Part shown: piece by piece, positions 4,430-18,700 of the stretch | Position numbering within the stretch: the stretch's first letter is position 1 | Layout: every line of letters begins with the position of its first letter | Assembly (NCBI GenBank): GCA_964343705.1 | Contig: CAYFJX010000002.1 | Span: 2,873-26,872 of the forward strand | Length of the DNA stretch: 24,000 bases | DNA from: an uncultured Methanosarcinales archaeon | GTDB taxonomy: Archaea; Nanobdellota; Nanobdellia; Woesearchaeales; UBA12501 | Direction of reading: 5' to 3' | Program-made: the position numbers and the translations under genes | Notes under the pieces: model-generated | Database searches by the model: none | What the model was told of the DNA's origin: nothing | Seen by the model: only the letters and a program-made list of their open reading frames with translations

Positions 4430-5029
4430 ATGGTCACGCTCTTACAATCAGGGATATTAGAAGCGATTCTACCTATTTTCTCTTTACTATTTGTTATGGC
4501 AGTGGTCTTTGGGGTACTGTCAGTTACAAAGCTATTTGGAGATAACAAAGGATTGCATGCTCTTCTTGCGTTTATCTTAGGTATTATGGTGTTACTCGTA
4601 CCACGAGTAACCGACCTCATAGCAACCATGATGCCTTGGTTTACCTTCTTTTTCATATTTGTAATCTTCTTACTTATTACCTACAAAATTTTTGGAGCTA
4701 CGGACGCGGATATTGCTGGTGTGCTCAAGGCAGACCGAACTATTGGATGGATAATCTTGATTATCTGTTTGATTATTGGTGCTGGTGCAGCTGCAAAAGT
4801 GTATGGGCAAACCCTACTTGATGAAGGGAGAAGCGGAGAAACAGTAGATAGAGTAATAGGTCCTGATGGAACCGAGTTAGAAGTAGTACAAGGCCCAGGA
4901 AGCAGTGCTAGTGGTGATTACGCAAGCAATGTACGAGCTGCGATATTTCACCCTAAAATTCTTGGCTTTGGCCTGTTAATGCTTATTGCTGTGCTTGCCA
5001 TGTCTGTTATGGCTATGGAGCCTAGGTAA
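4430..5029 (+). CDS. polytopic membrane protein, paralog 3 of 3 (hypothetical)
   Basis: 199 aa with block EAILPIFSLLFVMAVVFGVLSVTKLFG. It has a soluble loop (DEGRSGETVDRVIGPDGTELEVVQGPGSS) and a final TM span. Confidence 0.7.
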   Translation: MVTLLQSGILEAILPIFSLLFVMAVVFGVLSVTKLFGDNKGLHALLAFILGIMVLLVPRVTDLIATMMPWFTFFFIFVIFLLITYKIFGATDADIAGVLKADRTIGWIILIICLIIGAGAAAKVYGQTLLDEGRSGETVDRVIGPDGTELEVVQGPGSSASGDYASNVRAAIFHPKILGFGLLMLIAVLAMSVMAMEPR

Positions 5030-5988: not shown

Positions 5989-6525
5989 TTAGTGAATAGG
6001 AAGATTAGATGCTGTACCTGCATGTTGAGCTTGTTGTAATTCTTCAACACGAGCAAGAAGCTTGTCAAACTCTGCCCGAGTCACAAAATTCATAGGCTCC
6101 CACAAGTTAAGGTAATGCTGCATAGTCTGCACTTCATCACTTTTTGCGCAGTCTTTGAGTTCTTTAACAATAATTTTTACTTTGTCACGCAAATCAACAA
6201 ATTCAGTGCGGTAGTCTGAAAGTTCCTCTCCAAGGGCTTTTGTTTCCTTATTAGAGCCTTTACTCATCTTAAGGATGCTCTTATCACTAAGCTGTACTTT
6301 TTTTCGTAGATTAGTATATCGTTCTTCAAGCACCATAAGACGCCTTCCAAGATTAGAAAAATCTTTAGCAAGAGCTGATAAATCTTCATTTGTACCTGCT
6401 GCTGGCGCAGGCGTGTCTTTTTTACCAAAGAAACTAGGATGTTCTTTTTTAGGTTCATGCGCCTCTGCTGGCTTCTTATCACGGCCATCATGACCAGCTC
6501 CTGGCATTACAGCATTATGTTGCAT
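5989..6525 (-). CDS. coiled-coil protein (hypothetical)
   Basis: 178 aa with a charged N-terminus and then a long coiled coil (LMVLEERYTNLRKKVQLSDK...VDLRDKVKIIVKELK). SD AGAGGGG precedes the ATG. Divergent from the ATPase gene. Confidence 0.65.
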   Translation of the reverse strand: MQHNAVMPGAGHDGRDKKPAEAHEPKKEHPSFFGKKDTPAPAAGTNEDLSALAKDFSNLGRRLMVLEERYTNLRKKVQLSDKSILKMSKGSNKETKALGEELSDYRTEFVDLRDKVKIIVKELKDCAKSDEVQTMQHYLNLWEPMNFVTRAEFDKLLARVEELQQAQHAGTASNLPIH

Positions 6526-9096: not shown

Positions 9097-11382
9097 ATGG
9101 GATTATTTGATAAAAGGCCTGTTCCAAAAGAAGGTGAGGGTGCTGCAGGTGACGAGCGTGCCCAGCTACAAAAAGAAATTGCAGGTGCGATGGAAAAGTA
9201 CAAGAACCAACTTGACCAAAATATGAACACACTCAATCCAGAGGAAGCATCAGGAGATCAAGATTCTATTGAAACTAAAGAGTATCAAGAATTTAAGGAA
9301 GAATACATGCCGGGGCACATGTCATTCTATGAAAAAGCATGTAATCAGGCTGAAAAACTCATCAAGATTCACCCTCCAGAAGATAAGCATGACGAGATTC
9401 AAGGATACATAAACATTTGTCATTTGAATATCACACCTACAGGAGTATACTCTCTTTCATTTCTTGCCCCTATTGCACTTGCGCTTGTCAGTGCATTGTT
9501 TGGATTAATCTTCTTGCAGTCTATGTTTTTTGTGGTTTTCTTTTTTATTTTTGGGTATGCAACACTCAAACCAATGCAAGGTATACCAAAGTTTATGGCG
9601 AATAGTTGGCGGATGAAAGCAAGTAATCAAATGGTACTTGGAGTTTTTTACGTTGTGACGTATATGAGGCACACCTCAAACTTGGAACTTGCGATTGCTT
9701 TTGCTTCTGATCATTTATCACCCCCTCTATCTCTTGATTTTAGAAAGGTGTTGTGGGATATTGAAACTGGAAAGTATGAGGGAATAAAGGAATCTCTAGA
9801 CGCATATCTTATGACATGGAAAGAATGGGCACCTGAATTTGTTGAAGGTATGCATTTGATTGAATCATCTTTGTATGAAGGAGAAGAAAGTCGACGTGTT
9901 GAAATGCTTGATAAGTCGTTGGCTACCATGCTTGATCAAACGTATGAAAAAATGTTGCATTATGCACAGAACTTGAAAAGTCCCATGACCATGTTGCATA
10001 TGATGGGTGTTATCTTACCCATATTAGGATTAGTTATTCTTCCGCTTGTGGTAAGTTTTATGTCAGGCATTAAATGGTGGCATCTTTCATTACTATATAA
10101 TGTTGCACTGCCTGCAGGAGTTTTTTATCTTGCCATGACTATTCTTGCAACGCGCCCAAGCGGGTATGGTGATAGTGATATTTCTAATAATCCTGAGATT
10201 AAAAAATTCAAGAAGATCTTGATTAAGTTTGCTGGCAGGGAGATTCGACTTGAACCCTTGTATATTTGTCTTATTTTTTTCGCTGTTTTTGTGCTTATTG
10301 GTTTGTCGCCCATCCTTATCCATATGGCGACGTATGATTCAGCTCATAAAACCCAGCATTGGGATCTTATTTTGAACAAGGATTGGAAATTACAGACAAC
10401 GAATAAAATGGTGGATAATGGTGCTAAACTAGCGTTGCTTGAATATCGTATTTCAAAGCCAAAGCCAGGTTCTGTTGGTGGGGAGGTGTTAGGGCCGTTT
10501 GGCTTGGGCGCGTCGATGTTAAGTTTATGTTTGATTATTGGTATAGGTGTTGGATTTGGATTGTATTTTAAATTAAGATCGAAAAATGTTATTAAGATTA
10601 GACAACGTAGTCAAAAACTTGAACAGGAGTTTGCCTCAGCATTGTACCAGTTAGGAAATAGAATAGGAGATGGCATTCCTGCTGAGATAGCTTTTAGTAA
10701 GGTTGCTCAGAACATGGAAGGTTCTGTTTCTGGTGAATTTTTTCAGTTGGTTTCAACCAATATTTCTCGTGGTGGAATGGGAGTTGAGCAGGCAATTTTT
10801 GACCCTGAGTATGGTGCTCTTGTCCATTACCCTTCAAGTGTTATTGATTCATCAATGAAGGTTTTAACTGAAAGTGCGAAAAAAGGACCTAAGATAGCAG
10901 CTGCGGCACTGATCAATGTTTCCAATTATTTAAAAGAAATGCACAAGGTTAATGAGCGGTTAAAAGATTTGCTTGCTGACATTGTTGCATCTATGAGGTC
11001 GCAAGTTAAATTCATGGCGCCGGTTATTTCAGGTATTGTTATTGGTATTACTTCTATGATCACGACTATCCTTGGAAAGGTTGGTGCTCAAATGAAACGA
11101 CTTGCAGAAGGTGGCGGTGGTGGTCTTCTTGAAATGTTTGGTGATGGTGTACCAACGTATTACTTCCAGTTCATGGTTGGTTTGTATGTTGTGCAAATTG
11201 TGTATATTCTTAGTATTATGACGAATGGTATTGAAAATGGTTCTGATGAATTAAACGAGAGATACATGCTAGGTCATAATTTAGTTAGGAGCATTATCCT
11301 GTATGTGTGTTGTTCTGGTGCTGTAATGCTATTGTTCAACATCCTAGCAGTGACTATTCTAAAAGGCATTGCTAAAGGATAG
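9097..11382 (+). CDS. FlaJ/TadC/PilC-like polytopic membrane platform protein
   Basis: Two T2SS-F-like helical repeats (around LSLDFRKVLWDIETGKYEGIKESL and QEFASALYQLGNRIGDGIPAEIAFSKV) are each followed by TM segments. It lies immediately downstream of the ATPase. The ATG at 9097 with SD GAGGGTGA is preferred over the GTG at 9091. Confidence 0.8.
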   Translation: MGLFDKRPVPKEGEGAAGDERAQLQKEIAGAMEKYKNQLDQNMNTLNPEEASGDQDSIETKEYQEFKEEYMPGHMSFYEKACNQAEKLIKIHPPEDKHDEIQGYINICHLNITPTGVYSLSFLAPIALALVSALFGLIFLQSMFFVVFFFIFGYATLKPMQGIPKFMANSWRMKASNQMVLGVFYVVTYMRHTSNLELAIAFASDHLSPPLSLDFRKVLWDIETGKYEGIKESLDAYLMTWKEWAPEFVEGMHLIESSLYEGEESRRVEMLDKSLATMLDQTYEKMLHYAQNLKSPMTMLHMMGVILPILGLVILPLVVSFMSGIKWWHLSLLYNVALPAGVFYLAMTILATRPSGYGDSDISNNPEIKKFKKILIKFAGREIRLEPLYICLIFFAVFVLIGLSPILIHMATYDSAHKTQHWDLILNKDWKLQTTNKMVDNGAKLALLEYRISKPKPGSVGGEVLGPFGLGASMLSLCLIIGIGVGFGLYFKLRSKNVIKIRQRSQKLEQEFASALYQLGNRIGDGIPAEIAFSKVAQNMEGSVSGEFFQLVSTNISRGGMGVEQAIFDPEYGALVHYPSSVIDSSMKVLTESAKKGPKIAAAALINVSNYLKEMHKVNERLKDLLADIVASMRSQVKFMAPVISGIVIGITSMITTILGKVGAQMKRLAEGGGGGLLEMFGDGVPTYYFQFMVGLYVVQIVYILSIMTNGIENGSDELNERYMLGHNLVRSIILYVCCSGAVMLLFNILAVTILKGIAKG

Positions 11383-11385
11383 AGA

Positions 11386-11541
11386 GTTACTGCACCTTGG
11401 AGTTTATTCGCAAAATAACCGATTCGCTCAGTGAACAAGTATGTTCGCTGGCGTCCCAGTGAGCTCTGCTCACTGAGGACATGCAGGTTATTTTGCGCAA
11501 GTTCCCCGAGCGGATGCGAGGGTTTTGCTCTGTGCAGTAAC
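11386..11541 (+). ncRNA. candidate structured RNA element A (unassigned family)
   Basis: A 10-bp closing helix (GTTACTGCAC/GTGCAGTAAC) is followed by a CTT bulge and a GGAG/CTCT helix. An 11-bp helix (GCAAAATAACC/GGTTATTTTGC) encloses two hairpins, followed by the hairpin CCCGAGC-GGAT-GCGAGGG. The G-T pairs are tolerated only if the plus strand is the RNA. The element is GC-rich relative to its flanks. Confidence 0.45.
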
Positions 11542-11545
11542 TAAA

Positions 11546-11556
11546 ACAATATAAAC
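11546..11556 (+). promoter_or_regulatory. TATA box for 11579..12121
   Basis: The AACAATATAAACC region is centred ~28 nt upstream of the ATG at 11579 (leaderless pattern). Confidence 0.35.
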
Positions 11557-11578
11557 CATCACCATACTTACACACACA

Positions 11579-12121
11579 ATGAAACGACTCTTAACAAATA
11601 AAACAGTACGCAAGTATGCACCTCAAATCATTGGTGTCTTGCTCTTGCTTTCAATCATCATGTTTTTCACGAAGCTGTTCTTGTTTGTAACCTTCTTAGC
11701 GATTTCTATTGCTGCATCTTTTATTCCAGTAATCATCGGCACCAGAAGCATTGGCTTTGAATTTATCACATTTCCATCCCTCATATTTCTCTACCTGTAT
11801 GGGTGGTGGGATGCATCAGTGTTTTGTGTAGTTTCTCTCTTTTTTTGGATATTTATAACAAGAAGCATGTCCCTAAACAGCTTTTTAGCATTTGGTATTG
11901 TTCCTATTCTTCTTGCTGGCCTCATCCCTCTTAAAGGACTGGGCATATTTGCGCTGGGTATGATCTTATCAATTGTTGGCAATCTTATTTTCACCATTAT
12001 CACGATTGCATTTGGTACTGCACCAATCCATAGGCGGATTATTTATTTTGGAACGCATGTTGCCTGGTCATGGTTCCTGTTTGGTACGTTTGGTGAGATG
12101 ATTTTGAAAATGGTTATGTGA
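11579..12121 (+). CDS. polytopic membrane protein (hypothetical)
   Basis: 180 aa, almost entirely hydrophobic spans. Its last ~19 codons are duplicated in degenerate form at 12510-12565. Confidence 0.7.
   Translation: MKRLLTNKTVRKYAPQIIGVLLLLSIIMFFTKLFLFVTFLAISIAASFIPVIIGTRSIGFEFITFPSLIFLYLYGWWDASVFCVVSLFFWIFITRSMSLNSFLAFGIVPILLAGLIPLKGLGIFALGMILSIVGNLIFTIITIAFGTAPIHRRIIYFGTHVAWSWFLFGTFGEMILKMVM
12065..12121 (+). repeat. direct repeat copy 1 (functional 3' end of the membrane-protein gene)
   Basis: By hand alignment it is ~81% identical (46/57, one 1-nt gap) to 12510-12565. Encodes WSWFLFGTFGEMILKMVM*. Confidence 0.7.
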
Positions 12122-12140: not shown

Positions 12141-12503
12141 ATGAAAACAACCCCTGAACACGATGAGAGAATAGCAAATATGACATTTGCATCAGTGTAT
12201 CCCCTCCACTTAGCAAAAGTAGAAAAGAAAGGGAGAACAAAAAAAGAGCTGCACCAAGTAATACAATGGTTAACTGGCTTTGATGAAGAAAAGCTACGAA
12301 AACTTACTGATGAAAAAGTAACTTTTCAGACATTCTTTCAGAAAGCAAAGTTAAACCCAAATGCACATCTCATTACAGGAGTAATATGTGGATACCGTAT
12401 AGAAGAAATCAAAAATCCGTTAACACAAAAAGCAAGATATTTGGACAAGCTTGTTGACGAGTTAGCAAAGGGGAGAGCAATGGATAAGATTCTGAGGAAA
12501 TAA
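12141..12503 (+). CDS. DUF2200-like small soluble protein
   Basis: 120 aa. The N-terminal region IANMTFASVYPLHLAKVEKKGRTKKELHQVIQWLTGF resembles the DUF2200 family as I recall it. SD GAGAGGAAG lies upstream. Confidence 0.7.
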   Translation: MKTTPEHDERIANMTFASVYPLHLAKVEKKGRTKKELHQVIQWLTGFDEEKLRKLTDEKVTFQTFFQKAKLNPNAHLITGVICGYRIEEIKNPLTQKARYLDKLVDELAKGRAMDKILRK

Positions 12504-12509
12504 AAGACA

Positions 12510-12565
12510 TGGTCCGGGTTCTTATTTGATATGTTTGGTGACATGGTTCTAAAATGATTATGTGA
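12510..12565 (+). pseudogene. relic copy of the 3' end of gene 11579..12121 (direct repeat copy 2)
   Basis: Translates as WSGFLFDMFGDMVLK*, against WSWFLFGTFGEMILKMVM* in the intact gene. A 1-nt deletion truncates it. It has no upstream reading frame. Confidence 0.6.
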
Positions 12566-12566
12566 C

Positions 12567-12745
12567 CACTGGACATCTATTTTACCGAAATGCTTCCGGA
12601 ATTGATTTCTAAAACAGTGTTACAGCTCTTCTCGTCATCATTCGAAAATTCTCCGCAGGGATTATTCCGTCCACTAGACACAATTTTCGTCAAAGACGAA
12701 AATGTGCATCTGAGCTCTGCTCAGATTGCACTGGACATACGTCCG
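12567..12745 (+). other. hairpin-dense noncoding segment B1, bounded by a 10-bp direct repeat
   Basis: CACTGGACAT occurs at 12567-12576 and 12729-12738. Hairpins are TTTTCGTC-AAA-GACGAAAA (12684-12702) and GTGCATCTGAGC-TCT-GCTCAGATTGCAC (12704-12731). The second shares the 13-mer TGAGCTCTGCTCA with a hairpin apex in element A (11460-11472). Confidence 0.35.
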
Positions 12746-12752
12746 CGACAAA

Positions 12753-12761
12753 CTTATATAG
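12753..12761 (+). promoter_or_regulatory. candidate TATA box for the downstream structured RNA / LAGLIDADG transcript
   Basis: CTTATATAG is preceded by an A-rich BRE-like GACAAA. The predicted start is near 12781-12785. Caveat: TATAG...CTATA can also pair as a small hairpin. Confidence 0.3.
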
Positions 12762-12780
12762 CTCGAAAACTATACGGAAA

Positions 12781-13003
12781 GTAATGAAAAAAAGAAAGAT
12801 AACCCTTAGGCAAGGGAAAAAGGTTCAGACCCTAAGAATAAAGAACATCTTGAAATATTTAAATCTTTCGCAATGCCTGGGTAACCCTAATCAGGTAAGG
12901 GAGGGAGGTTCAGACCCTCTCAGTCAGCAATGACTTCGGGGTTCAAATCTCTTTAGAGTGCTAAGCTCTTGGGGTGAAACTCCCCGCTCAGGCGCATTCC
13001 CAT
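12781..13003 (+). ncRNA. candidate structured RNA / long structured leader B (unassigned)
   Basis: No credible ORF. Two ~35-40-nt repeat units (12801-12836 and 12883-12923) share the exact 13-mer AGGTTCAGACCCT presented in hairpin loops. GNRA-type hairpins are GG-GTAA-CC (12879-12886) and AGTCA-GCAA-TGACT (12922-12935). A T-arm-like GGGGTTCAAATCTCT lies at 12938-12952. Includes the bulged hairpin 12955-12999. Confidence 0.4.
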
Positions 13004-13042
13004 CACCCTCATGTTTTTACAGGGTGAAAAACATGAGAGGTG
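13004..13042 (+). promoter_or_regulatory. 15-bp hairpin sequestering the SD of the LAGLIDADG gene
   Basis: CACCCTCATGTTTTT (13004-13018) pairs with AAAAACATGAGAGGTG (13027-13042) with one small bulge. The 3' arm contains the GAGGTG of the SD, located 4-7 nt before the ATGs at 13047 and 13050. Confidence 0.45.
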
Positions 13043-13046
13043 ATTG

Positions 13047-13739
13047 ATGATGGAATTTGACATATCTAAGATAAAGTTTAGTTATATGGATAGGAGAAGA
13101 GGGGTAGTTATACCTACCCAAGTTTCTGAAAGTTTAGCTGAATTTGTAGGCATACTTATAGGAGATGGGTATTTACATAGCAATAAGAAAAAGTATACAA
13201 TTGGTGTTGTTGGAAGCCCAAAAACTGATGTTGAATACTTTACTAGAGTACAAAATCTGATTCAAGATACTTTTGGCTTAACAACAAAGATACATGAGAG
13301 GGAAAGAGCTCTACGATTAGTTTTTGGATCAAAAGCCATTTTCACTTTCTTAACAAACACAGTAGGATTAGCGCATGGGCCTAAGAAAGGAGAAGCAGTA
13401 ACAATTCCTAAATCAATCCTACTTAAGGAACTTACTACAAACGCTGTACTCAGAGGAATATTTGATACAGATGGAAGCATTTTCTTCTCTGACAAAAAAG
13501 GTTCTCCGAATTACCCCACAATAGAACTTACCACTACAAGTGGGGTATTAGCAACACAGATCGCTGAAATTCTAGCGAAAAAAGGATACAGGGTTCGCCC
13601 AAGAAAACACAGACCAGGCAATAATTTAGTCATAAACAGAGTGGCACTATATGGGAAGAAAAATATGAAAAGATGGTTTGAAGAGATTGGCTTTACAAAT
13701 CCCATAAAACAACGAAAACTAATCCAAGCAGTGATATAA
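13047..13739 (+). CDS. LAGLIDADG-family homing endonuclease, double-motif monomeric type
   Basis: Two LAGLIDADG motifs are present: LAEFVGILIGDGYL and AVLRGIFDTDGSIF. The ~230-aa size fits a single-chain enzyme. The track start at 13044 is TTG. The ATGs at 13047/13050 follow SD GAGGTGA. Confidence 0.9.
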   Translation: MMEFDISKIKFSYMDRRRGVVIPTQVSESLAEFVGILIGDGYLHSNKKKYTIGVVGSPKTDVEYFTRVQNLIQDTFGLTTKIHERERALRLVFGSKAIFTFLTNTVGLAHGPKKGEAVTIPKSILLKELTTNAVLRGIFDTDGSIFFSDKKGSPNYPTIELTTTSGVLATQIAEILAKKGYRVRPRKHRPGNNLVINRVALYGKKNMKRWFEEIGFTNPIKQRKLIQAVI

Positions 13740-13751
13740 AAAAAGGAAAAG

Positions 13752-13851
13752 TGGGAATGCAGGGATTTGAACCCTGGACATCCAGATCTTCAGTATCGCC
13801 TGCAAGACAGTGCCTTGCATCTGGCGCTCTCCCAGGCTGAGCTACATTCCC
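13752..13851 (-). tRNA. tRNA-Phe (anticodon GAA) with a 26-nt intron at a non-canonical position (~31/32)
   Basis: Minus strand reads GGGAATG-TA-GCTC-AGCCTGGGA-GAGC-G-CCAGA-[TGCAAGGCACTGTCTTGCAGGCGATA]-CTGAAGA-TCTGG-ATGTC-CAGGG-TTCAAAT-CCCTG-CATTCCC-A. The cloverleaf is perfect once 13794-13819 is removed. It has U33, G37 and A73, and no encoded CCA. Confidence 0.85.
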
Positions 13852-15581: not shown

Positions 15582-17126
15582 TTAAAGCTTATTAAATGTT
15601 GTTCTTCCTGAGAGTAAATCATCAAGTACACGAACTAACTCTTCAATTTTCACACGTTTTTGTTGAGCAGTATCACGATCACGAATAGTTGCCTCTCCAT
15701 CGTCTAAACTTTCAAAGTCTATAGTAACACAGTAGGGTGTACCAATCTCATCATTTCGTGCATAGCGCCGTCCAATACTTCCAGACTTGTCATACACACA
15801 TACAAAATGGTCTTTCACCAGGGCAAATACTTCACGTGCTTTATCTCTGAGCTTGTTTACTAGTGGAAGAACTGCAACTTTTACTGGTGCAAGTTTAGGA
15901 TGTAGTTTAAGCACAATGTTTCCTCGTTCTTTGTCATCGTTGTACGCGTCAAACAAGAAAACAAGCAGGGTTCGCTCTACTCCAAACGCTGGTTCTGAAA
16001 CAACGTGTGGCAGGACTTTTTTGTTAGTTTCTTCGTCATATAGTGTGAGGTCTGCTTTTGAATGAAGCATGTGTTGTTTGAGGTCAAAGTCCCCCCGGTT
16101 TGCAACTCCTTGCAGTTCTTTCCATCCAAACGGAAACTTGTATTCTAGATCCCACGTGTCAACTGCGTAATGACTTTTTTCATCTTTAAGATGTTGACGA
16201 ATACGAAAATTAGAAGGTTGTGCACCAAGACTGAGGTACCAATTAAATGATGAAGCAAGCCAGTACGCCTGCCAAGGATTAGTAAGTATTTTTTGATCCA
16301 TTGCTTCCTTAAGGGTCATTTCTTGATGTTCTTTTTTTTGTTCTTGCATGTCTGATGAAATAATCTGGATTTTTGTTCCAAGGACTTCATCAAGAAAAGG
16401 ACAGTCATTTCCTTTGTCTGGATGAATAAAGTATTCTAGTTCCATTTGTTCAAATTCACGACAGCGAAAAATAAAGTCTCGTGCACGTATTTCATTTCTG
16501 AATGACCTTCCCATTTGTGCAATACCAAAGGGCAGCTTTAATCGTGCGTGCTCTGTAACAAGTCTAAAATTAGTGAACATCATTTGTGCTGTTTCTGGTC
16601 TAAGATACGCTGTTGAACTGTCATTTTCTACTGGTCCAACTTGAGTTCTAAACATGAGGTTGAATTGTTTTCCTTCTGCATATCCTCCACCACACTTGCA
16701 GTTAATGTTGTTTTCTACAATCAGTTTGGTTACATCTTCTTTTGAAAGGCCGTCTGCTTGAATTTTCAGTTTGTCTTCAATAAGGTGGTCTCCTCGTACA
16801 CGTGCATTACACTTGCTGCATTCTACCATGACATCTTCAAAGCAGTCAACATGGCCTGATGCCTTCCATACTTTTGGATTGGTAATGATACTTGCGTCAA
16901 TACCTACAACGTCTTCTCGTGATTGTACAAAGTGGCGCCACCAATGTTGTTTCATGTTGTTTTTGAGTTCAGACCCAAGATGGCCAAAGTCAAAGAATCC
17001 TGCAAGTCCCCCATAGAGTTCTGCTGTGGGGTAGATAAAGCCTTTTGCTTTACAGAATGTAGCCATGCCTTCTATGTTAAGACCTATATTTCCTGTGTCC
17101 GCGTCCCCTGTTGTTTTTTCTGCCAT
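15582..17126 (-). CDS. glyS: glycyl-tRNA synthetase, alpha2 (archaeal/eukaryotic) type
   Basis: The 514-aa length fits. Motifs include AELYGGLAGFFDFGHLGSELKNN, RPETAQMMFTNF, and the class II motif-2-like GRSFRNEIRARDFIFRCREFEQMELEYF. A C-terminal anticodon-binding region is present. Confidence 0.95.
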   Translation of the reverse strand: MAEKTTGDADTGNIGLNIEGMATFCKAKGFIYPTAELYGGLAGFFDFGHLGSELKNNMKQHWWRHFVQSREDVVGIDASIITNPKVWKASGHVDCFEDVMVECSKCNARVRGDHLIEDKLKIQADGLSKEDVTKLIVENNINCKCGGGYAEGKQFNLMFRTQVGPVENDSSTAYLRPETAQMMFTNFRLVTEHARLKLPFGIAQMGRSFRNEIRARDFIFRCREFEQMELEYFIHPDKGNDCPFLDEVLGTKIQIISSDMQEQKKEHQEMTLKEAMDQKILTNPWQAYWLASSFNWYLSLGAQPSNFRIRQHLKDEKSHYAVDTWDLEYKFPFGWKELQGVANRGDFDLKQHMLHSKADLTLYDEETNKKVLPHVVSEPAFGVERTLLVFLFDAYNDDKERGNIVLKLHPKLAPVKVAVLPLVNKLRDKAREVFALVKDHFVCVYDKSGSIGRRYARNDEIGTPYCVTIDFESLDDGEATIRDRDTAQQKRVKIEELVRVLDDLLSGRTTFNKL

Positions 17127-17156
17127 AACGCCTCAATACAGAAATACAAGCCATTA

Positions 17157-17168
17157 TTTATATATTTA
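17157..17168. promoter_or_regulatory. near-palindromic TATA element (glyS promoter; could also fire toward element C)
   Basis: TTATTTATATATT lies ~35 nt upstream of the glyS ATG on the minus strand and ~40 nt upstream of element C on the plus strand. Confidence 0.3.
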
Positions 17169-17203
17169 GCGGCAGATAAGGGCATCTCCTACGTCTTTCT
17201 GAG

Positions 17204-17312
17204 GAATAGTGCCGCCTTGGAGTTTATCAGCCGAGACCCTGATTTATGCAAGGGTCTCGGCGTCAGTTACTGCCCGCTGGATGCGGGCAGCCCTAGCTCC
17301 GCTGCACTATTC
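17204..17312 (+). ncRNA. candidate structured RNA element C (same architecture as element A)
   Basis: A 9-bp closing helix (GAATAGTGC/GCACTATTC) is extended by GC/GC. A CTT bulge and a GGAG/CTCC helix follow. Hairpins are CCGAGACCCT-GATTTATGCA-AGGGTCTCGG and CTGCCCGC-TGGAT-GCGGGCAG. The 13-mer CCTTGGAGTTTAT (17215-17227) is identical to 11395-11407. Confidence 0.4.
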
Positions 17313-17348
17313 ATCCTGCACAAAAAAAGACTTAAAATGAAAAGAAAT

Positions 17349-18587
17349 TCAATGACTTCTCAACCAGGTAACTTCATCAGGATCCAGTTCTAGCTGGGCT
17401 GCAAGACCCTCTGCCATCACTGCCCCAGATCTGTTACGAAACACATTGTGTAAATAAGGTAACGTGTCTTTGATTGCTCGCTTGGTTGAAGTGTGTGTTA
17501 CTGCAGCAATTTTTTCAGCAATACTTTTTCGCTTTGCATACTTCATATTTGCCTGCCAGATTCGCAGCAATCGCATAGTTCGACGGTACTCTACCTGGTT
17601 TGGATTCTTAGTGTCTTTTGAAACTGCGACCCCTGCACTCAAGTAGGCATTGACATACACAAGGAAACGCCAGTATTGCCACCTCATAATACGTTTTTGC
17701 ATGATGTCAGCTTTGGACACATAATCATACGCTCGTGCTAAATCTGCAGGGTTTGTATACTCGCTAGGAAGGTTTTCATCAATCCACAGCATGATCTCTT
17801 TGAGGTCTTCATTGACATTGTCAAACGCGTGGACTGCAATGTCTACCTTGTTTGTTTTGAAAACACGTAAAAGCCCGTTGTTAAGCGGTTCTACTCTCTG
17901 TCGTTCTGAAAGATCATCAAGAGCTTCCTTGGTAAGCTTCTTTGTTTCAATGGTAAGTGATTGTAAATCATTGAGAGCACCTCGAACATCCCCCCCTGCC
18001 ATTCGTGCAAGTGTATTGAGTGCCATTTGATCAAAGCCAATGTTTTCAGCAGTACAAACACGTGTAAGAAGGTCAGCGATTGCTGTGTGACTTACTTCTT
18101 CAAAGCCCACTTGTGTACTTGCTTTTCGTAATGCTTTGAGTTTGTCAGAGCTTGGATCACCAGCTGTGCATATAACTGGAAATGATGAATCTGCAATGAG
18201 TTTGAGTAATTCAACAACACCCCCTCTGTCTTTCCTTCCTGAAAGTCCATCAACTTCATCGACCAGTATAAGTTTTCCCTTTGAGAACAAGGACATTTGT
18301 TTCATTGCTCCTCCAAGAATACTGTTGATACCATCTTTGTTTCGAAAGTCACTTGCGTTCATTTCTACTAGTTCAAGATCTGTTTGGTTGGCAATTGCGT
18401 GAACAGCGCTTGTTTTTCCACAACCAGGAGGACCATGAAGGAGAATACACTTGCCTTTTTTACTAGAAGAGCTACTGCTATAATTATTTATGAATTGTAT
18501 AAGTTGTGCAATTCCACTTTCTTGTCCAACTACATCTTCTGGTTTTTTGGGACAGTACTTTTTGATAAAGGGTGTTGAGTCACTCAT
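17349..18587 (-). CDS. rfcL: replication factor C large subunit
   Basis: Archaeal RFC-L layout with KYCPKKPEDVVGQ, Walker A LHGPPGCGKTS, ELVEMNASDFR, and Walker B LILVDEVDGL. The track start at 18599 is TTG, so the ATG at 18587 (MSDSTPF) is preferred. Confidence 0.9.
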   Translation of the reverse strand: MSDSTPFIKKYCPKKPEDVVGQESGIAQLIQFINNYSSSSSSKKGKCILLHGPPGCGKTSAVHAIANQTDLELVEMNASDFRNKDGINSILGGAMKQMSLFSKGKLILVDEVDGLSGRKDRGGVVELLKLIADSSFPVICTAGDPSSDKLKALRKASTQVGFEEVSHTAIADLLTRVCTAENIGFDQMALNTLARMAGGDVRGALNDLQSLTIETKKLTKEALDDLSERQRVEPLNNGLLRVFKTNKVDIAVHAFDNVNEDLKEIMLWIDENLPSEYTNPADLARAYDYVSKADIMQKRIMRWQYWRFLVYVNAYLSAGVAVSKDTKNPNQVEYRRTMRLLRIWQANMKYAKRKSIAEKIAAVTHTSTKRAIKDTLPYLHNVFRNRSGAVMAEGLAAQLELDPDEVTWLRSH

Positions 18588-18700
18588 ACAACCAACCAAG
18601 AGAGGGGTATTAATATTGTTTGTGTTGATGAAGTTAATAATTGGAGAAAACTTTAAATAACGCTGTACACTAATCCCTATAGAAGAACGGAGGTGTTCTG

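Follow-up and report, generated by a model that had tools for sequence, protein, structure and literature searches.

To our knowledge, few non-coding RNAs beyond tRNA and rRNA have been described for the DPANN archaea. The BHB motif, which is cut by the splicing endonuclease EndA, consists of two 3-nt bulges 4 bp apart; some EndAs accept relaxed hBH, HBh' and BHL forms (PMC6379350). DPANN EndAs that carry ASL/L3 inserts have been associated with relaxed motifs and with the disruption of tRNA genes (PMC12397907, PMC5829648), and in the clade that hosts the locus described here EndA specificity is relaxed and tRNA genes are heavily disrupted (PMC6379350, PMC5829648, PMC12397907).

Here, we describe a 158-nt spacer (11385-11542) between two genes of a Woesearchaeote, a DPANN archaeon, that gives a multi-helix RNA fold (Element A). 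An unbiased structure scan of the window, that is, the whole 24,000-nt stretch of DNA analyzed, found a paralog 6 kb away (Element C). Both carry at their base an outer helix, a 3-nt bulge and a 4-bp helix, and their features are collected in Table 1.

Fold of Element A

An earlier sequence-only reading of this DNA had proposed a set of helices for Element A, and all of them are present. The 10-bp closing helix (11386-11395 with 11532-11541) is Watson-Crick throughout and extends to 11 pairs (P1); GGAG (11399-11402) pairs with CUCU (11528-11531) after the CUU bulge, to which we add a fifth pair, U11403.G11527; the inner helix, given as 11 bp, has 12 (11409-11420 with 11486-11497) and encloses two hairpins, the second with the apex pairing GAGC-UCU-GCUC; and the hairpin CCC-GA-GC-GGAU-GC-GA-GGG, with its tandem G.A positions, lies at 11505-11522. 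The description "GC-rich" holds relative to the window (50% versus 40%) and not in absolute terms.

The RNAfold minimum free energy (MFE) of Element A is -74.5 kcal/mol, compared with -44.0 +/- 3.6 in 200 dinucleotide shuffles (z = -8.4), of which 0/200 equaled it. The MFE structure pairs the GGAG strand and the 3' hairpin differently from the fold of the sequence-only reading, but the two are isoenergetic (-76.1 and -75.9, respectively), and it is the latter pairing that Element C retains.

The reading had also assigned the fold to the plus strand, and the pairs agree with this. The G.U pairs G11399.U11531, U11403.G11527 and U11432.G11447 in Element A and U17223.G17296 in Element C can form on the + strand only, as can the tandem G.A/A.G in the 3' hairpin (P4) of Element A, and there are no A.C mismatches anywhere; the energy gap between the strands of Element A is small (-74.5 for + versus -70.0 for -). 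A coding role for Element A was considered and rejected: its sole ORF (11387-11575, a 62-aa frame on the - strand) is absent from public annotations, and the covariation described below is unlike that of a coding sequence.

Table 1. Coordinates of the parts of Elements A and C and of the related hairpin, as positions in the window
Feature	Position	Strand	Remarks
Element A P1 5' strand AGUUACUGCAC	11385-11395	+	11 Watson-Crick pairs with 11532-11542; A11385-T11542 is the 11th
Element A CUU 3-nt bulge	11396-11398	+	Unpaired in the MFE of A and C; same in both copies
Element A P2 5' strand GGAGU	11399-11403	+	Pairs with GCUCU 11527-11531: G.U, G-C, A-U, G-C, U.G
Element A junction J2/3 UUAUU	11404-11408	+	UUAU closes the invariant 13-mer CCUUGGAGUUUAU (11395-11407)
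Element A P3 5' strand CGCAAAAUAACC	11409-11420	+	12 Watson-Crick pairs with 11486-11497
Element A P3 loop, 5' half GAUUC	11421-11425	+	Counterpart in C: GAUUU 17241-17245
Element A nested 55-nt module	11426-11480	+	hp1 11426-11452, hp2 11453-11480; hp2 apex UGAGCUCUGCUCA
Element A P3 loop, 3' half AUGCA	11481-11485	+	Same as 17246-17250 of C
Element A P3 3' strand	11486-11497	+	Pairs with 11409-11420
Element A junction J3/4 CAAGUUC	11498-11504	+	AGUU common to C (GUCAGUUAC)
Element A P4 hairpin CCCGAGC-GGAU-GCGAGGG	11505-11522	+	GGAUGCG 7/7 in C
Element A junction J4/2 UUUU	11523-11526	+	With G11527, loop side of the putative BHL; sequence differs in C (GCCCUA)
Element A P2 3' strand GCUCU	11527-11531	+	Pairs with GGAGU 11399-11403
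Element A P1 3' strand GUGCAGUAACU	11532-11542	+	Pairs with 11385-11395
Element C, 109 nt	17204-17312	+	P1 17204-17215 / 17301-17312
Element C CUU bulge	17216-17218	+	Unpaired in the MFE of C
Element C P2	17219-17223 / 17296-17300	+	GGAG pairing is the MFE of C
Element C P3	17230-17240 / 17251-17261	+	Loop GAUUUAUGCA
Element C P4	17271-17289	+	C-G, C-G where A has tandem G.A/A.G
hp2-type hairpin GUGC-AUCUGAGC-UCU-GCUCAGAU-U-GCAC	12704-12731	+	Recurrence of the hp2 of A at a third intergenic site

Covariation between the two copies

Elements A and C have one architecture in common, namely P1, the CUU bulge, P2 (GGAGU:GCUCY) and a three-way junction with the hairpins P3 and P4. Element A amounts to Element C plus a 55-nt two-hairpin module nested in the P3 loop, so that the core of A is ~103 nt; when the module is removed, A aligns to C, and the flanks rejoin as the loop of C, GAUUYAUGCA.

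The sequence-only reading had looked to compensatory changes in homologs, and the paralog supplies them in all four core helices. Among the 34 aligned pairs of these two sequences from one population (in a hand-trimmed alignment), 17 are identical, 14 are changed on both sides, one is G.U in A and G-C in C (in P2), two go from G.A to C-G, and none is broken. When the 3' partner is shifted out of register by 1-3 columns, 0-2 double changes remain and 32-47% of positions pair, compared with 97% in register. Five of the 11 P1 pairs are altered on both sides with pairing intact, and 7 of the 11 aligned P3 pairs are likewise altered on both sides. Mutagenesis of the stems of the DGR type was rejected as an explanation, since the changes are compensated on both arms.

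The stems are ~50% diverged, and the loops are nearly identical. Among the unpaired segments, CCUUGGAGUUUAU is shared at 13/13 positions (17215-17227 in C), the P3 loop GAUUYAUGCA at 9/10 and GGAUGCG at 7/7, for a total of 29/30; the bulge and the 4-bp GGAG:CUCY helix are the best-conserved part of both elements. Because the flanks outside P1 have no similarity beyond chance, the conserved unit is bounded by P1.

Invariant loops with diverged, compensated stems are, as read from this pair of sequences, what selection on a fold of single strands leaves behind. We regard it as very likely that the fold of A and C is under selection, and as probable, with less assurance, that it acts as RNA. Against an RNA (and an EndA) reading stands the almost exclusively Watson-Crick pairing of the long stems, which would equally suit a DNA-level palindrome. 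That the second copy retains every helix via its compensating changes argues for a real structured-RNA family.

Searches for further copies and for known families

The sequence-only reading could place Element A in no RNA family, and covariance-model scans agree. With Rfam 15 at the gathering threshold, neither A nor C gave a match, and the only match in the window was the tRNA at 13752-13851; at E <= 10, the best sub-threshold matches of A and C had E values of 0.6-10 and were all implausible. Hammerhead and other ribozymes, 5S, SRP, RNase P, and C/D and H/ACA RNAs were rejected on the lack of Rfam signal and of box motifs. As far as their sequences indicate, A and C are a structured-RNA family absent from Rfam 15.

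One might still suspect that A and C belong to a known class (5S, SRP Alu domain, RNase P fragment, tRNA-like RNA or ribozyme) and have diverged far from it, since RNAs of the DPANN often do diverge and can escape the Rfam models. Nothing was found below E = 5 for A or 0.6 for C, however; the bulged 16-bp base with a three-way junction and two short hairpins suits none of these classes, and an essential single-copy RNA would not be expected to occur as two paralogs that differ in their insertions. A functionless chance palindrome, which we group with this explanation, is excluded by the z value of -8.4 and by the paralog, and we consider the pair of them extremely improbable.

Further copies were sought in several ways. 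A search with Element A by nhmmer against 89 loci gave no true match; exact 12-mer searches and motif searches at 1-3 mismatches in all loci gathered, and a scan with a helix/bulge/GGAG...CUCY descriptor, gave no further copy. A covariance model made from C only was overly specific and failed to recover A, and one made from the trimmed A and C found both and nothing more, whether in Woesearchaeota loci (781 kb) or in pattern matches (274 kb). In JGI metagenomes, the pattern CCTTGGAGTTTAT..GGATGC..GCTC gave 13 chance matches, none folding like A or C; four IMG/VR scans returned chance matches only, and blastn against phage and plasmid collections no true match. Within ~48 kb of the same genome (the window and ~24 kb further along), there are two copies and no third, and these searches found no homologs outside the source population.

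Genomic context and insertion

The gene upstream of Element A has its stop codon at 11380-11382, so that coding sequence reaches to 3 nt before P1, and a TATA-like box (AATATAAA, 11548-11555) precedes the ATG of the next gene at 11579. This is the context that the sequence-only reading had described, and with a TATA box between Element A and the next gene, its view of a discrete, strand-specific structured unit, not a 5' leader, is upheld. Element C lies between glyS (15582-17126, -) and rfcL (17349-18599, -) and opposes both. A riboswitch or 5' leader was rejected on the same TATA box for A and on the antisense position of C.

In the closest relatives, the spacer is 7-8 nt at the A site (platform gene / 180-aa gene) and 38-39 nt at the C site (rfcL / glyS). 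Relative to them, A and C are lineage-specific insertions of ~180-190 nt each, and Element A separates a gene pair that is tightly coupled (an operon) in relatives. There is no target-site duplication, in that no direct repeat is found at A (GATAGAG / AAAACAA) or C (TTCTGAG / ATCCTGC). The second copy, the nesting of the inner hairpins of A in a ~103-nt core and the insertion into very short spacers all go beyond the sequence-only reading.

The hairpin at 12704-12731 has the same apex 13-mer and the same 1-nt 3' bulge as the hp2 of Element A, with compensatorily different outer pairs, and is immediately preceded by another hairpin at 12682-12703. It has the same chromosomal orientation as A and C. 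The region 12504-13050 shows no conservation in relatives.

The surroundings are rich in insertions, with a DUF2200 cassette between direct repeats and a LAGLIDADG gene. The tRNA of the window (13752-13851) has an unusually placed insertion, and the equivalent tRNA of other Woesearchaeota has several.

The lineage-specific insertion of both copies into very short spacers gives rise to a mobile-element reading, and the main rival to an EndA-released RNA family is a non-autonomous mobile DNA element (MITE-, REP-/REPIN-like, or a derivative of a single-strand-DNA transposon), whose hairpins a transposase encoded elsewhere would recognize in their DNA form, with any RNA a by-product. It would account for the insertion of ~180-190 nt into both spacers, for the nested module and the return of its hairpin at a third intergenic site with all three in one orientation, and for the insertion-rich region (DUF2200 cassette, LAGLIDADG gene); P1 looks like a terminal inverted repeat of 10-12 bp, and nearly all pairs of the long stems are Watson-Crick. 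Yet the would-be inverted repeats differ between the copies at 5/11 positions, always on both arms, and ~50% diverged stems with identical loops are the opposite of recent transposition and of neutral decay. Target-site duplication and a common flank are lacking, only two copies are present in ~48 kb of genome, no transposase is found in the window or the extended loci, and the G.U/G.A asymmetry favors one strand. Overall, we consider a mobile DNA element unlikely.

A cis-acting transcript element (3'-end stabilizer, terminator or insulator), uncoupling its neighbors as bacterial REP/ERIC sequences do in operons, would fit the splitting of a coupled gene pair by A, after which a new TATA-like box precedes the downstream gene, and the T-rich run that the flank of Element C offers after rfcL on the - strand. 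No single UTR role suits both copies, however, because A is sense and C antisense to its neighbors. The conserved loops and three-way junction exceed the needs of a stabilizing hairpin, and the two copies do not conserve a hairpin with an oligo-T terminator, P4 being followed by UUUU in A and by GCCCUA in C. A cis-acting role is very unlikely in our judgment.

Proposed processing

No terminator-like site was found, and there is no oligo-T run 3' of A or C on the + strand. Because the elements have no promoter or oligo-T terminator of their own, and A begins 3 nt past a stop codon within what is an operon in relatives, we infer that the RNA would be cut from a longer transcript, with its ends fixed by processing.

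The sequence-only reading had seen in the base of Element A half of the motif cut by EndA. What survives is the conserved helix / CUU / 4-bp base in both copies; a strict BHB does not, and the match is to the relaxed form only. Of the strict form (hBHBh'), the first 3-nt bulge beside the outer helix h is supplied by CUU after the 11-bp P1, with the same in C, and GGAG:CUCY forms 4 pairs in both copies, which a conserved U.G (11403.11527; 17223.17296) could extend to 5. The second 3-nt bulge and inner helix h' are absent: the 3' strand of P2 opens directly into the multiloop, where the bases that precede it (UUUU in A and GCCCUA in C) cannot pair with UUUAU. The relaxed geometry (hBH, or bulge-helix-loop), that is, outer helix, 3-nt bulge, 4-bp helix and loop, is found in both.

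By analogy, we tentatively read A and C as a small structured RNA family that may be released by EndA from a longer transcript and circularized by an RtcB-type ligase. The RNA would be made from the + strand, with a core of ~103-109 nt, its 5' and 3' ends joined by P1, and P2 opening into the three-way junction with the hairpin loops of P3 (GAUUYAUGCA) and P4 ((U)GGAU). The two EndA cuts would fall within the CUU bulge and, on the junction strand, immediately 5' of GCUCY, and the ligase would seal the released core of ~130 nt (A) or ~80 nt (C) into a stable, probably circular RNA, whose conserved loops may bind a partner. It is geometry and analogy that suggest excision and circularization. 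The conservation of the bulge and 4-bp helix, the relaxed EndAs of the DPANN and the insertions in the tRNA of the window and its Woesearchaeota equivalents make a role of EndA plausible; the ~48 kb of this genome contain no EndA gene.

Several points count against processing by EndA. The second bulge and h' are absent, and the conserved U.G could spoil the 4-bp ruler. Element C, opposed to both neighbors, could be transcribed only if + strand transcripts started from the TATA at 17157-17164, which is nearly palindromic. EndA reads shape, not sequence, and so leaves unexplained the invariant 13-mer across the bulge, which points to a sequence-specific partner or a tertiary contact, for example of CUU with AAG/CAG in J3/4; a contact of GGAU in the P4 loop with AUUY in the P3 loop is also proposed.

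A stable small RNA or RNP scaffold that stays linear and is not cut by EndA would do better on this last point: a sequence-specific binder accounts for the 13-mer more readily than a shape-reading EndA. P1 would shield such an RNA from exonucleases, other nucleases would make its ends, and the invariant bulged helix and loops would be sites for a protein or RNA, as in Y RNAs with Ro. The same structural and covariation evidence applies to it, and the two paralogs with a common bulged terminal stem and differing upper domains fit it too. On the other hand, the window holds no gene for a candidate partner, processing would still be required without a promoter or terminator to define the primary transcript, and the Rfam Y_RNA and related models gave no match at E <= 10. 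Archaea generally use EndA for helix-guided excision, which also counts against a linear RNA, and we consider it somewhat unlikely.

The EndA reading and mobility can also be combined. A and C might be an ORF-less mobile element at the RNA level, a free-living, BHL-bounded "intron" that inserts into intergenic transcripts or spacers of a streamlined DPANN genome and is excised and circularized by the host EndA and RtcB, with the nested module as a second such element. We hold this to be quite improbable.

Implications

A compact, well-supported fold that occurs twice in a ~1-Mb-class genome, with spacers otherwise of 8-40 nt, is probably not junk that the cell could dispense with. Should the bulged base be an EndA site, small RNAs that stand alone between genes would join tRNA, rRNA and a few mRNAs as substrates of this enzyme, and two natural substrates with a common base would make a simple test system. 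If the elements are mobile instead, they offer a view of how small structured insertions, possibly BHB introns, colonize archaeal genomes; were the RNA-level mobile element true, it would add a new class to the selfish RNAs of archaea and offer a living example of BHB intron spread. On either reading, Woesearchaeales genomes can be searched with the defined covariance model that the family supplies.

Comparison with known systems

A kink-turn, the site of L7Ae, has the helix, 3-nt bulge and helix order of A and C. This candidate was rejected because G.U/G-C and G-C pairs come directly after the bulge, where a kink-turn has tandem sheared G.A/A.G; the sole tandem G.A lies in P4 of A, and C has C-G pairs in its place.

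Integron attC sites have been reported in Archaea too. Like Element A, they are structured single-strand elements directly after a stop codon, and, like both elements, they keep their structure while the stem sequence varies and have extrahelical bases. An attC site was rejected since, in both A and C, the inner end of the basal helix lacks an R'' RYYYAAC / R' GTTRRRY core; P1 ends there in ...TGCAC/GTGCA... (A) and ...CCGC/GCTGC... (C). Also unlike attC, there is no integrase domain in the window ORFs scanned and no cassette array, and C lies between housekeeping genes.

MITEs and the bacterial intergenic repeats REP/REPIN, ERIC, Correia and BOX resemble A and C in being structured, 100-160 nt long, intergenic or intra-operon, variably present in relatives and modular or nested. 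A MITE was rejected because the terminal repeats are not conserved between the copies and there is no target-site duplication; A and C differ from these repeats also in their compensated stems with invariant loops, and the ~48 kb of genome contain two copies.

Y RNAs have paired ends, a conserved bulged helix as protein site and a variable upper domain, measure ~100 nt and occur as several paralogs per genome. They and other small RNP RNAs would share with A and C the long end-pairing stem, the bulged helix, the variable upper domain and the presence of paralogs; A and C show no sequence or covariance-model similarity to them, and no Ro/TROVE gene was seen.

Unlike known EndA substrates, A and C lie outside tRNA, rRNA and mRNA coding regions and are without the second bulge and h', and their bulge and central helix are invariant in sequence, which those of real BHBs are not; the putative EndA product would be a small three-way-junction RNA with no known homolog. 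What they share with relaxed BHB substrates (non-canonical tRNA introns, rRNA processing stems and EndA/RtcB-made circular RNAs) is the order of parts at the base: an outer helix built from the sequences on either side of the RNA to be released, a 3-nt bulge, a 4-bp helix and a loop.

Fold and strand of Element A

All the helices that the sequence-only reading had placed at 11386-11541 are present in the sequence, and an additional pair, A11385-U11542, extends the closing helix (P1) to 11 bp. As a plus-strand RNA, Element A has a minimum free energy (MFE) of -74.5 kcal/mol, against a mean of -44.0 (sd 3.6) for 200 dinucleotide-preserving shuffles, 0/200 of which fold as well (z = -8.4). The minus strand is almost equal (-70.0, z -7.9), which is no surprise given that Watson-Crick pairs make up most of the stems. 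In the RNAfold optimum, GGAGUUU is paired to AAGUUCC and the 3' hairpin takes another fold; the earlier fold, with GGAG(U):(G)CUCU beside the closing helix and the hairpin CCCGAGC-GGAU-GCGAGGG, lies within 0.2 kcal/mol of it (-75.9 vs -76.1). The description of the element as GC-rich holds relative to the window (50% vs 40%) rather than outright.

Pairs of G with U that work only on the plus strand had been noted, and more now agree: G11399.U11531, U11403.G11527 and U11432.G11447 in A, and U17223.G17296 in Element C, its paralog. The tandem G.A pairs of A's P4 hairpin likewise point to the plus strand, and no A.C mismatch, the plus-strand appearance of a minus-strand G.U, occurs in A or C. The long stems of P1, P3, P4 and hp2 contain Watson-Crick pairs only. 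The non-Watson-Crick features favour the plus strand by 4-6 to 0, a tally that is suggestive and not decisive. An antisense GTG ORF of 62 aa covers all of A; public annotations of the identical contigs do not include it, and it is most probably spurious.

Locations of features in the window and in comparison loci (L-numbers)
Feature	Location	Strand	Remark
62-aa ORF	11387-11575	-	GTG start
Element A	11385-11542	+	
hp1	11426-11452	+	nested in A's P3 loop
hp2	11453-11480	+	nested in A's P3 loop
Direct repeats	12065-12121, 12510-12566		~57 nt, ~80% identity
DUF2200 gene	12141-12503		between the direct repeats
C/D-box-like match	12633-12698	-	SNORD38 model, E 0.31, AUGAUGA box
Hairpin pair	12682-12731	+	
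hp2-like hairpin	12704-12731	+	3' member of the pair
GC-rich stretch and endonuclease ORF	12790-13739		stretch of 250 nt
26-nt direct repeats	12808-12833, 12893-12918		AGGYAAGGGA...GGTTCAGACCCT
LAGLIDADG endonuclease ORF	13044-13739		free-standing
tRNA gene	13752-13851	-	55 bits in Rfam
glyS	15582-17126	-	
TATA	17157-17164	+	near-palindromic
GCGGCA	17169-17174		upstream of C
Element C	17204-17312	+	
UGCCGC	17210-17215	+	inner end, P1 5' strand of C
rfcL	17349-18599	-	
tRNA after platform gene	L013 ~6330-6460	-	
tRNA after platform gene	L044 ~4430-4560	-	
tRNA after platform gene	L045 ~6181-6310	-	
tRNA after platform gene	L063 ~6168-6300	-	
tRNA after platform gene	L088 3040-3115	-	
Spacer hairpin	L030 6173-6302	-	~20-bp stem
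Spacer hairpin	L074 6247-6376	-	~20-bp stem
Nop5 and fibrillarin genes	L130 7078-9370		this genome

Element C and compensatory change

A sliding fold scan of the 24 kb on either strand ranks the A locus and 17150-17350 as the two most over-structured sites. The latter holds Element C, where A's 13-mer CCUUGGAGUUUAT recurs without a change; the 13-mer spans the final P1 base, the CUU bulge, GGAG and UUUAU. C (MFE -60.3, z -7.5, mononucleotide shuffles) has a closing helix of 12 positions with one C.U mismatch, then the CUU bulge and GGAGU(U):(A)GCUCC (P2), and a three-way junction from which two hairpins rise, one of 11 bp with the loop GAUUUAUGCA (P3) and one of 7 bp with the loop UGGAU. Once the 55-nt module formed by hp1 and hp2 (11426-11480) is taken out of A, the flanks GAUUC and AUGCA match C's P3 loop, so A is a C-type core that carries a two-hairpin module within its P3 loop. 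The upstream GCGGCA is complementary to UGCCGC within C, and the two might pair instead, in competition with C's P1.

Pairs were compared between these two sequences only, and were counted both from raw coordinates and from a hand-trimmed ungapped alignment (A8), with the same outcome. A8 was obtained by taking out A's nested module and six C bases that are unpaired or mismatched, and is therefore biased towards structure; the coordinate count is independent of it. There are 34 homologous pairs: 17 are identical, 14 have changed on both sides with pairing kept (P1 5, P3 7, P4 2), one passes from G.U in A to G-C in C, two replace tandem G.A/A.G in A by C-G/C-G in C, and none is broken. In the true register 97% of cells are paired, against 32-47%, with 0-2 double changes, when the 3' partners are slid by 1-3 columns. 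Unpaired segments are identical at 13/13, 9/10 and 7/7 positions, and the flanks outside P1 show no similarity above chance.

About 50% of the stem sequence has thus drifted with pairing perfect, around an invariant bulge and loops. Together with the sharp P1 boundaries, this makes it very probable that the fold of both elements is under selection, and it rules out a recent repeat or a neutral palindrome. Homologs with compensatory changes, on which the sequence-only reading had staked its candidate, are represented by one paralog with 14 double changes. That the fold acts as RNA is probable, if less firmly so.

Insertion and distribution

The 763-aa membrane protein encoded by the platform gene, which ends at 11382, adjoins a T2SSE-type ATPase and has >3,000 homologs, the named ones being from Woesearchaeota/Nanoarchaeota. 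Several assemblies from a single metagenome project carry identical copies of the locus; the next-nearest relatives have 67-69% identity in this protein. In two of these, L085 and L089, only 7-8 nt separate the platform gene from a downstream homolog (68% identical) of the window's 180-aa gene, vs 196 nt in the window (3 nt, A and 37 nt); A is thus an insertion into a formerly tightly coupled gene pair. The TATA proposed for the next gene itself is borne out by a TATA-like AATATAAA in the 37-nt tail, 24 nt 5' of the ATG. The glyS-rfcL spacer is 222 nt in the window and 38-39 nt in L086 and L088, where it holds only a TTTATATA box. With relatives' spacers short at both sites, A and C are both gains of this lineage, and their two sites are unrelated. 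A is oriented with its neighbouring genes and C against both of its own; that they act in cis as transcript boundary elements is improbable.

Mobile DNA would account for two lineage-specific insertions, the nested module, the shared orientation of the copies and the Watson-Crick stems, but the evolutionary pattern of A vs C speaks against it, copy number is low, and neither a target-site duplication nor a transposase was found; we consider it unlikely. The RNA-family and mobility readings are compatible, and a bulge-helix-loop (BHL) element mobile at the RNA level, combining both, has a slim chance of being correct.

No third copy was found in the rest of the window, in ~24 kb of further sequence from the same population (genome walking), or in 80 loci of other Woesearchaeota species plus 4 close relatives (781 kb; nhmmer, motif, descriptor and covariance-model searches). 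A pattern scan of JGI metagenomes gave 13 matches, all chance and none folding like A or C, and four IMG/VR scans gave no third copy; since the collection scans required an exact match to motifs derived from two sequences, diverged members would escape them. The hairpin at 12704-12731 resembles hp2, with the apex UGAGCUCUGCUCA (13 nt), a UCU loop, a 1-nt 3' bulge and compensated differences in its outer pairs, and like hp2 it lies directly 3' of another hairpin. The two-hairpin module may recur separately from the core.

The Rfam check that had been proposed places A in no Rfam family: the single match in the window at Rfam 15 gathering thresholds is the tRNA, and permissive filters (E <= 10) return only noise for A and C (miRNA, snoRNA, CrcZ, RT-9, IRES fragment). 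ARAGORN gave zero matches, and blastn against phage and plasmid collections gave no meaningful match. A diverged known RNA, or chance, is very improbable.

Neighbouring features

The tRNA gene missed by ARAGORN carries a 26-32-nt insertion at an unusual position in the anticodon arm. Its loop, CUGAAGA, points to tRNA-Phe(GAA), whose intron would then lie at a non-canonical site, 5' of position 32; no bulge-helix-bulge (BHB) could be drawn by hand for the insertion. Many other Woesearchaeota have the equivalent tRNA-Phe after their platform gene, and in several it is broken up by more than one long insertion (D-, anticodon- and T-arms), which makes disrupted tRNA genes a common trait of the clade. 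The window's example agrees with the relaxed splicing endonuclease (EndA) picture for DPANN (PMC5829648).

The first of the ~57-nt direct repeats coincides with the 3' end of the 180-aa gene, and the DUF2200 region resembles a bacterial-type gene that was inserted as a cassette. The GC-rich stretch before the LAGLIDADG ORF has good predicted structure, is without an Rfam match (no group I intron) and is not conserved in relatives. The weak C/D-box-like match is probably noise; Nop5 and fibrillarin are encoded in this genome. The long near-perfect hairpins after the platform gene in L030 and L074 have sequences unrelated to those of A and C.

Possible processing and comparison with known systems

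Coding sequence reaches to 3 nt before P1 of A, and no oligo-T terminator was found after A or C; a discrete RNA would therefore need to be excised from a longer transcript. The precursor of A would be read-through from the platform gene, and that of C would start at the TATA ~40 nt upstream. Excision of RNAs from helices that their own flanks form is known in archaea as the work of the splicing endonuclease.

This enzyme's site has two 3-nt bulges with 4 bp between them (PMC6379350); enzymes with extra loops also accept relaxed hBH/HBh'/BHL sites (PMC6379350; PMC12397907), and such loops are common in DPANN EndAs, in genomes whose tRNA genes are heavily disrupted (PMC5829648). No part of the family is better conserved than the base of A and C, which consists of an outer helix, the CUU bulge, 4 bp and a junction. 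The BHB-type geometry claimed for A fits the relaxed definition but lacks the second bulge and h'. The proposed EndA cuts fall in the CUU bulge and, on the junction strand, 5' of GCUCY; a ligase would then close the released core. We regard this mechanism as tentative: besides the missing parts, a conserved U.G possibly lengthens the central helix, and the sequence invariance exceeds EndA's needs.

That invariance hints at another binder or tertiary pairs. Possible tertiary candidates are the P4-loop GGAU with the P3-loop AUUY, where C to U retains G-C/G.U, and CUU with AAG/CAG in J3/4, the strand between P3 and P4. A linear, Y-RNA-like RNP scaffold with a sequence-specific partner is a lesser possibility than the EndA-cut, ligase-sealed core.

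A and C make up a new family, so far known from one population, with a plausible, unproven processing mechanism. They are not a classical MITE, as a target-site duplication is absent and the terminal repeats differ between A and C, and they lack the defining features of attC sites and K-turns. As these definitions fail and the selection pattern is that of a conserved fold, we class A and C as a new family of small structured RNAs.
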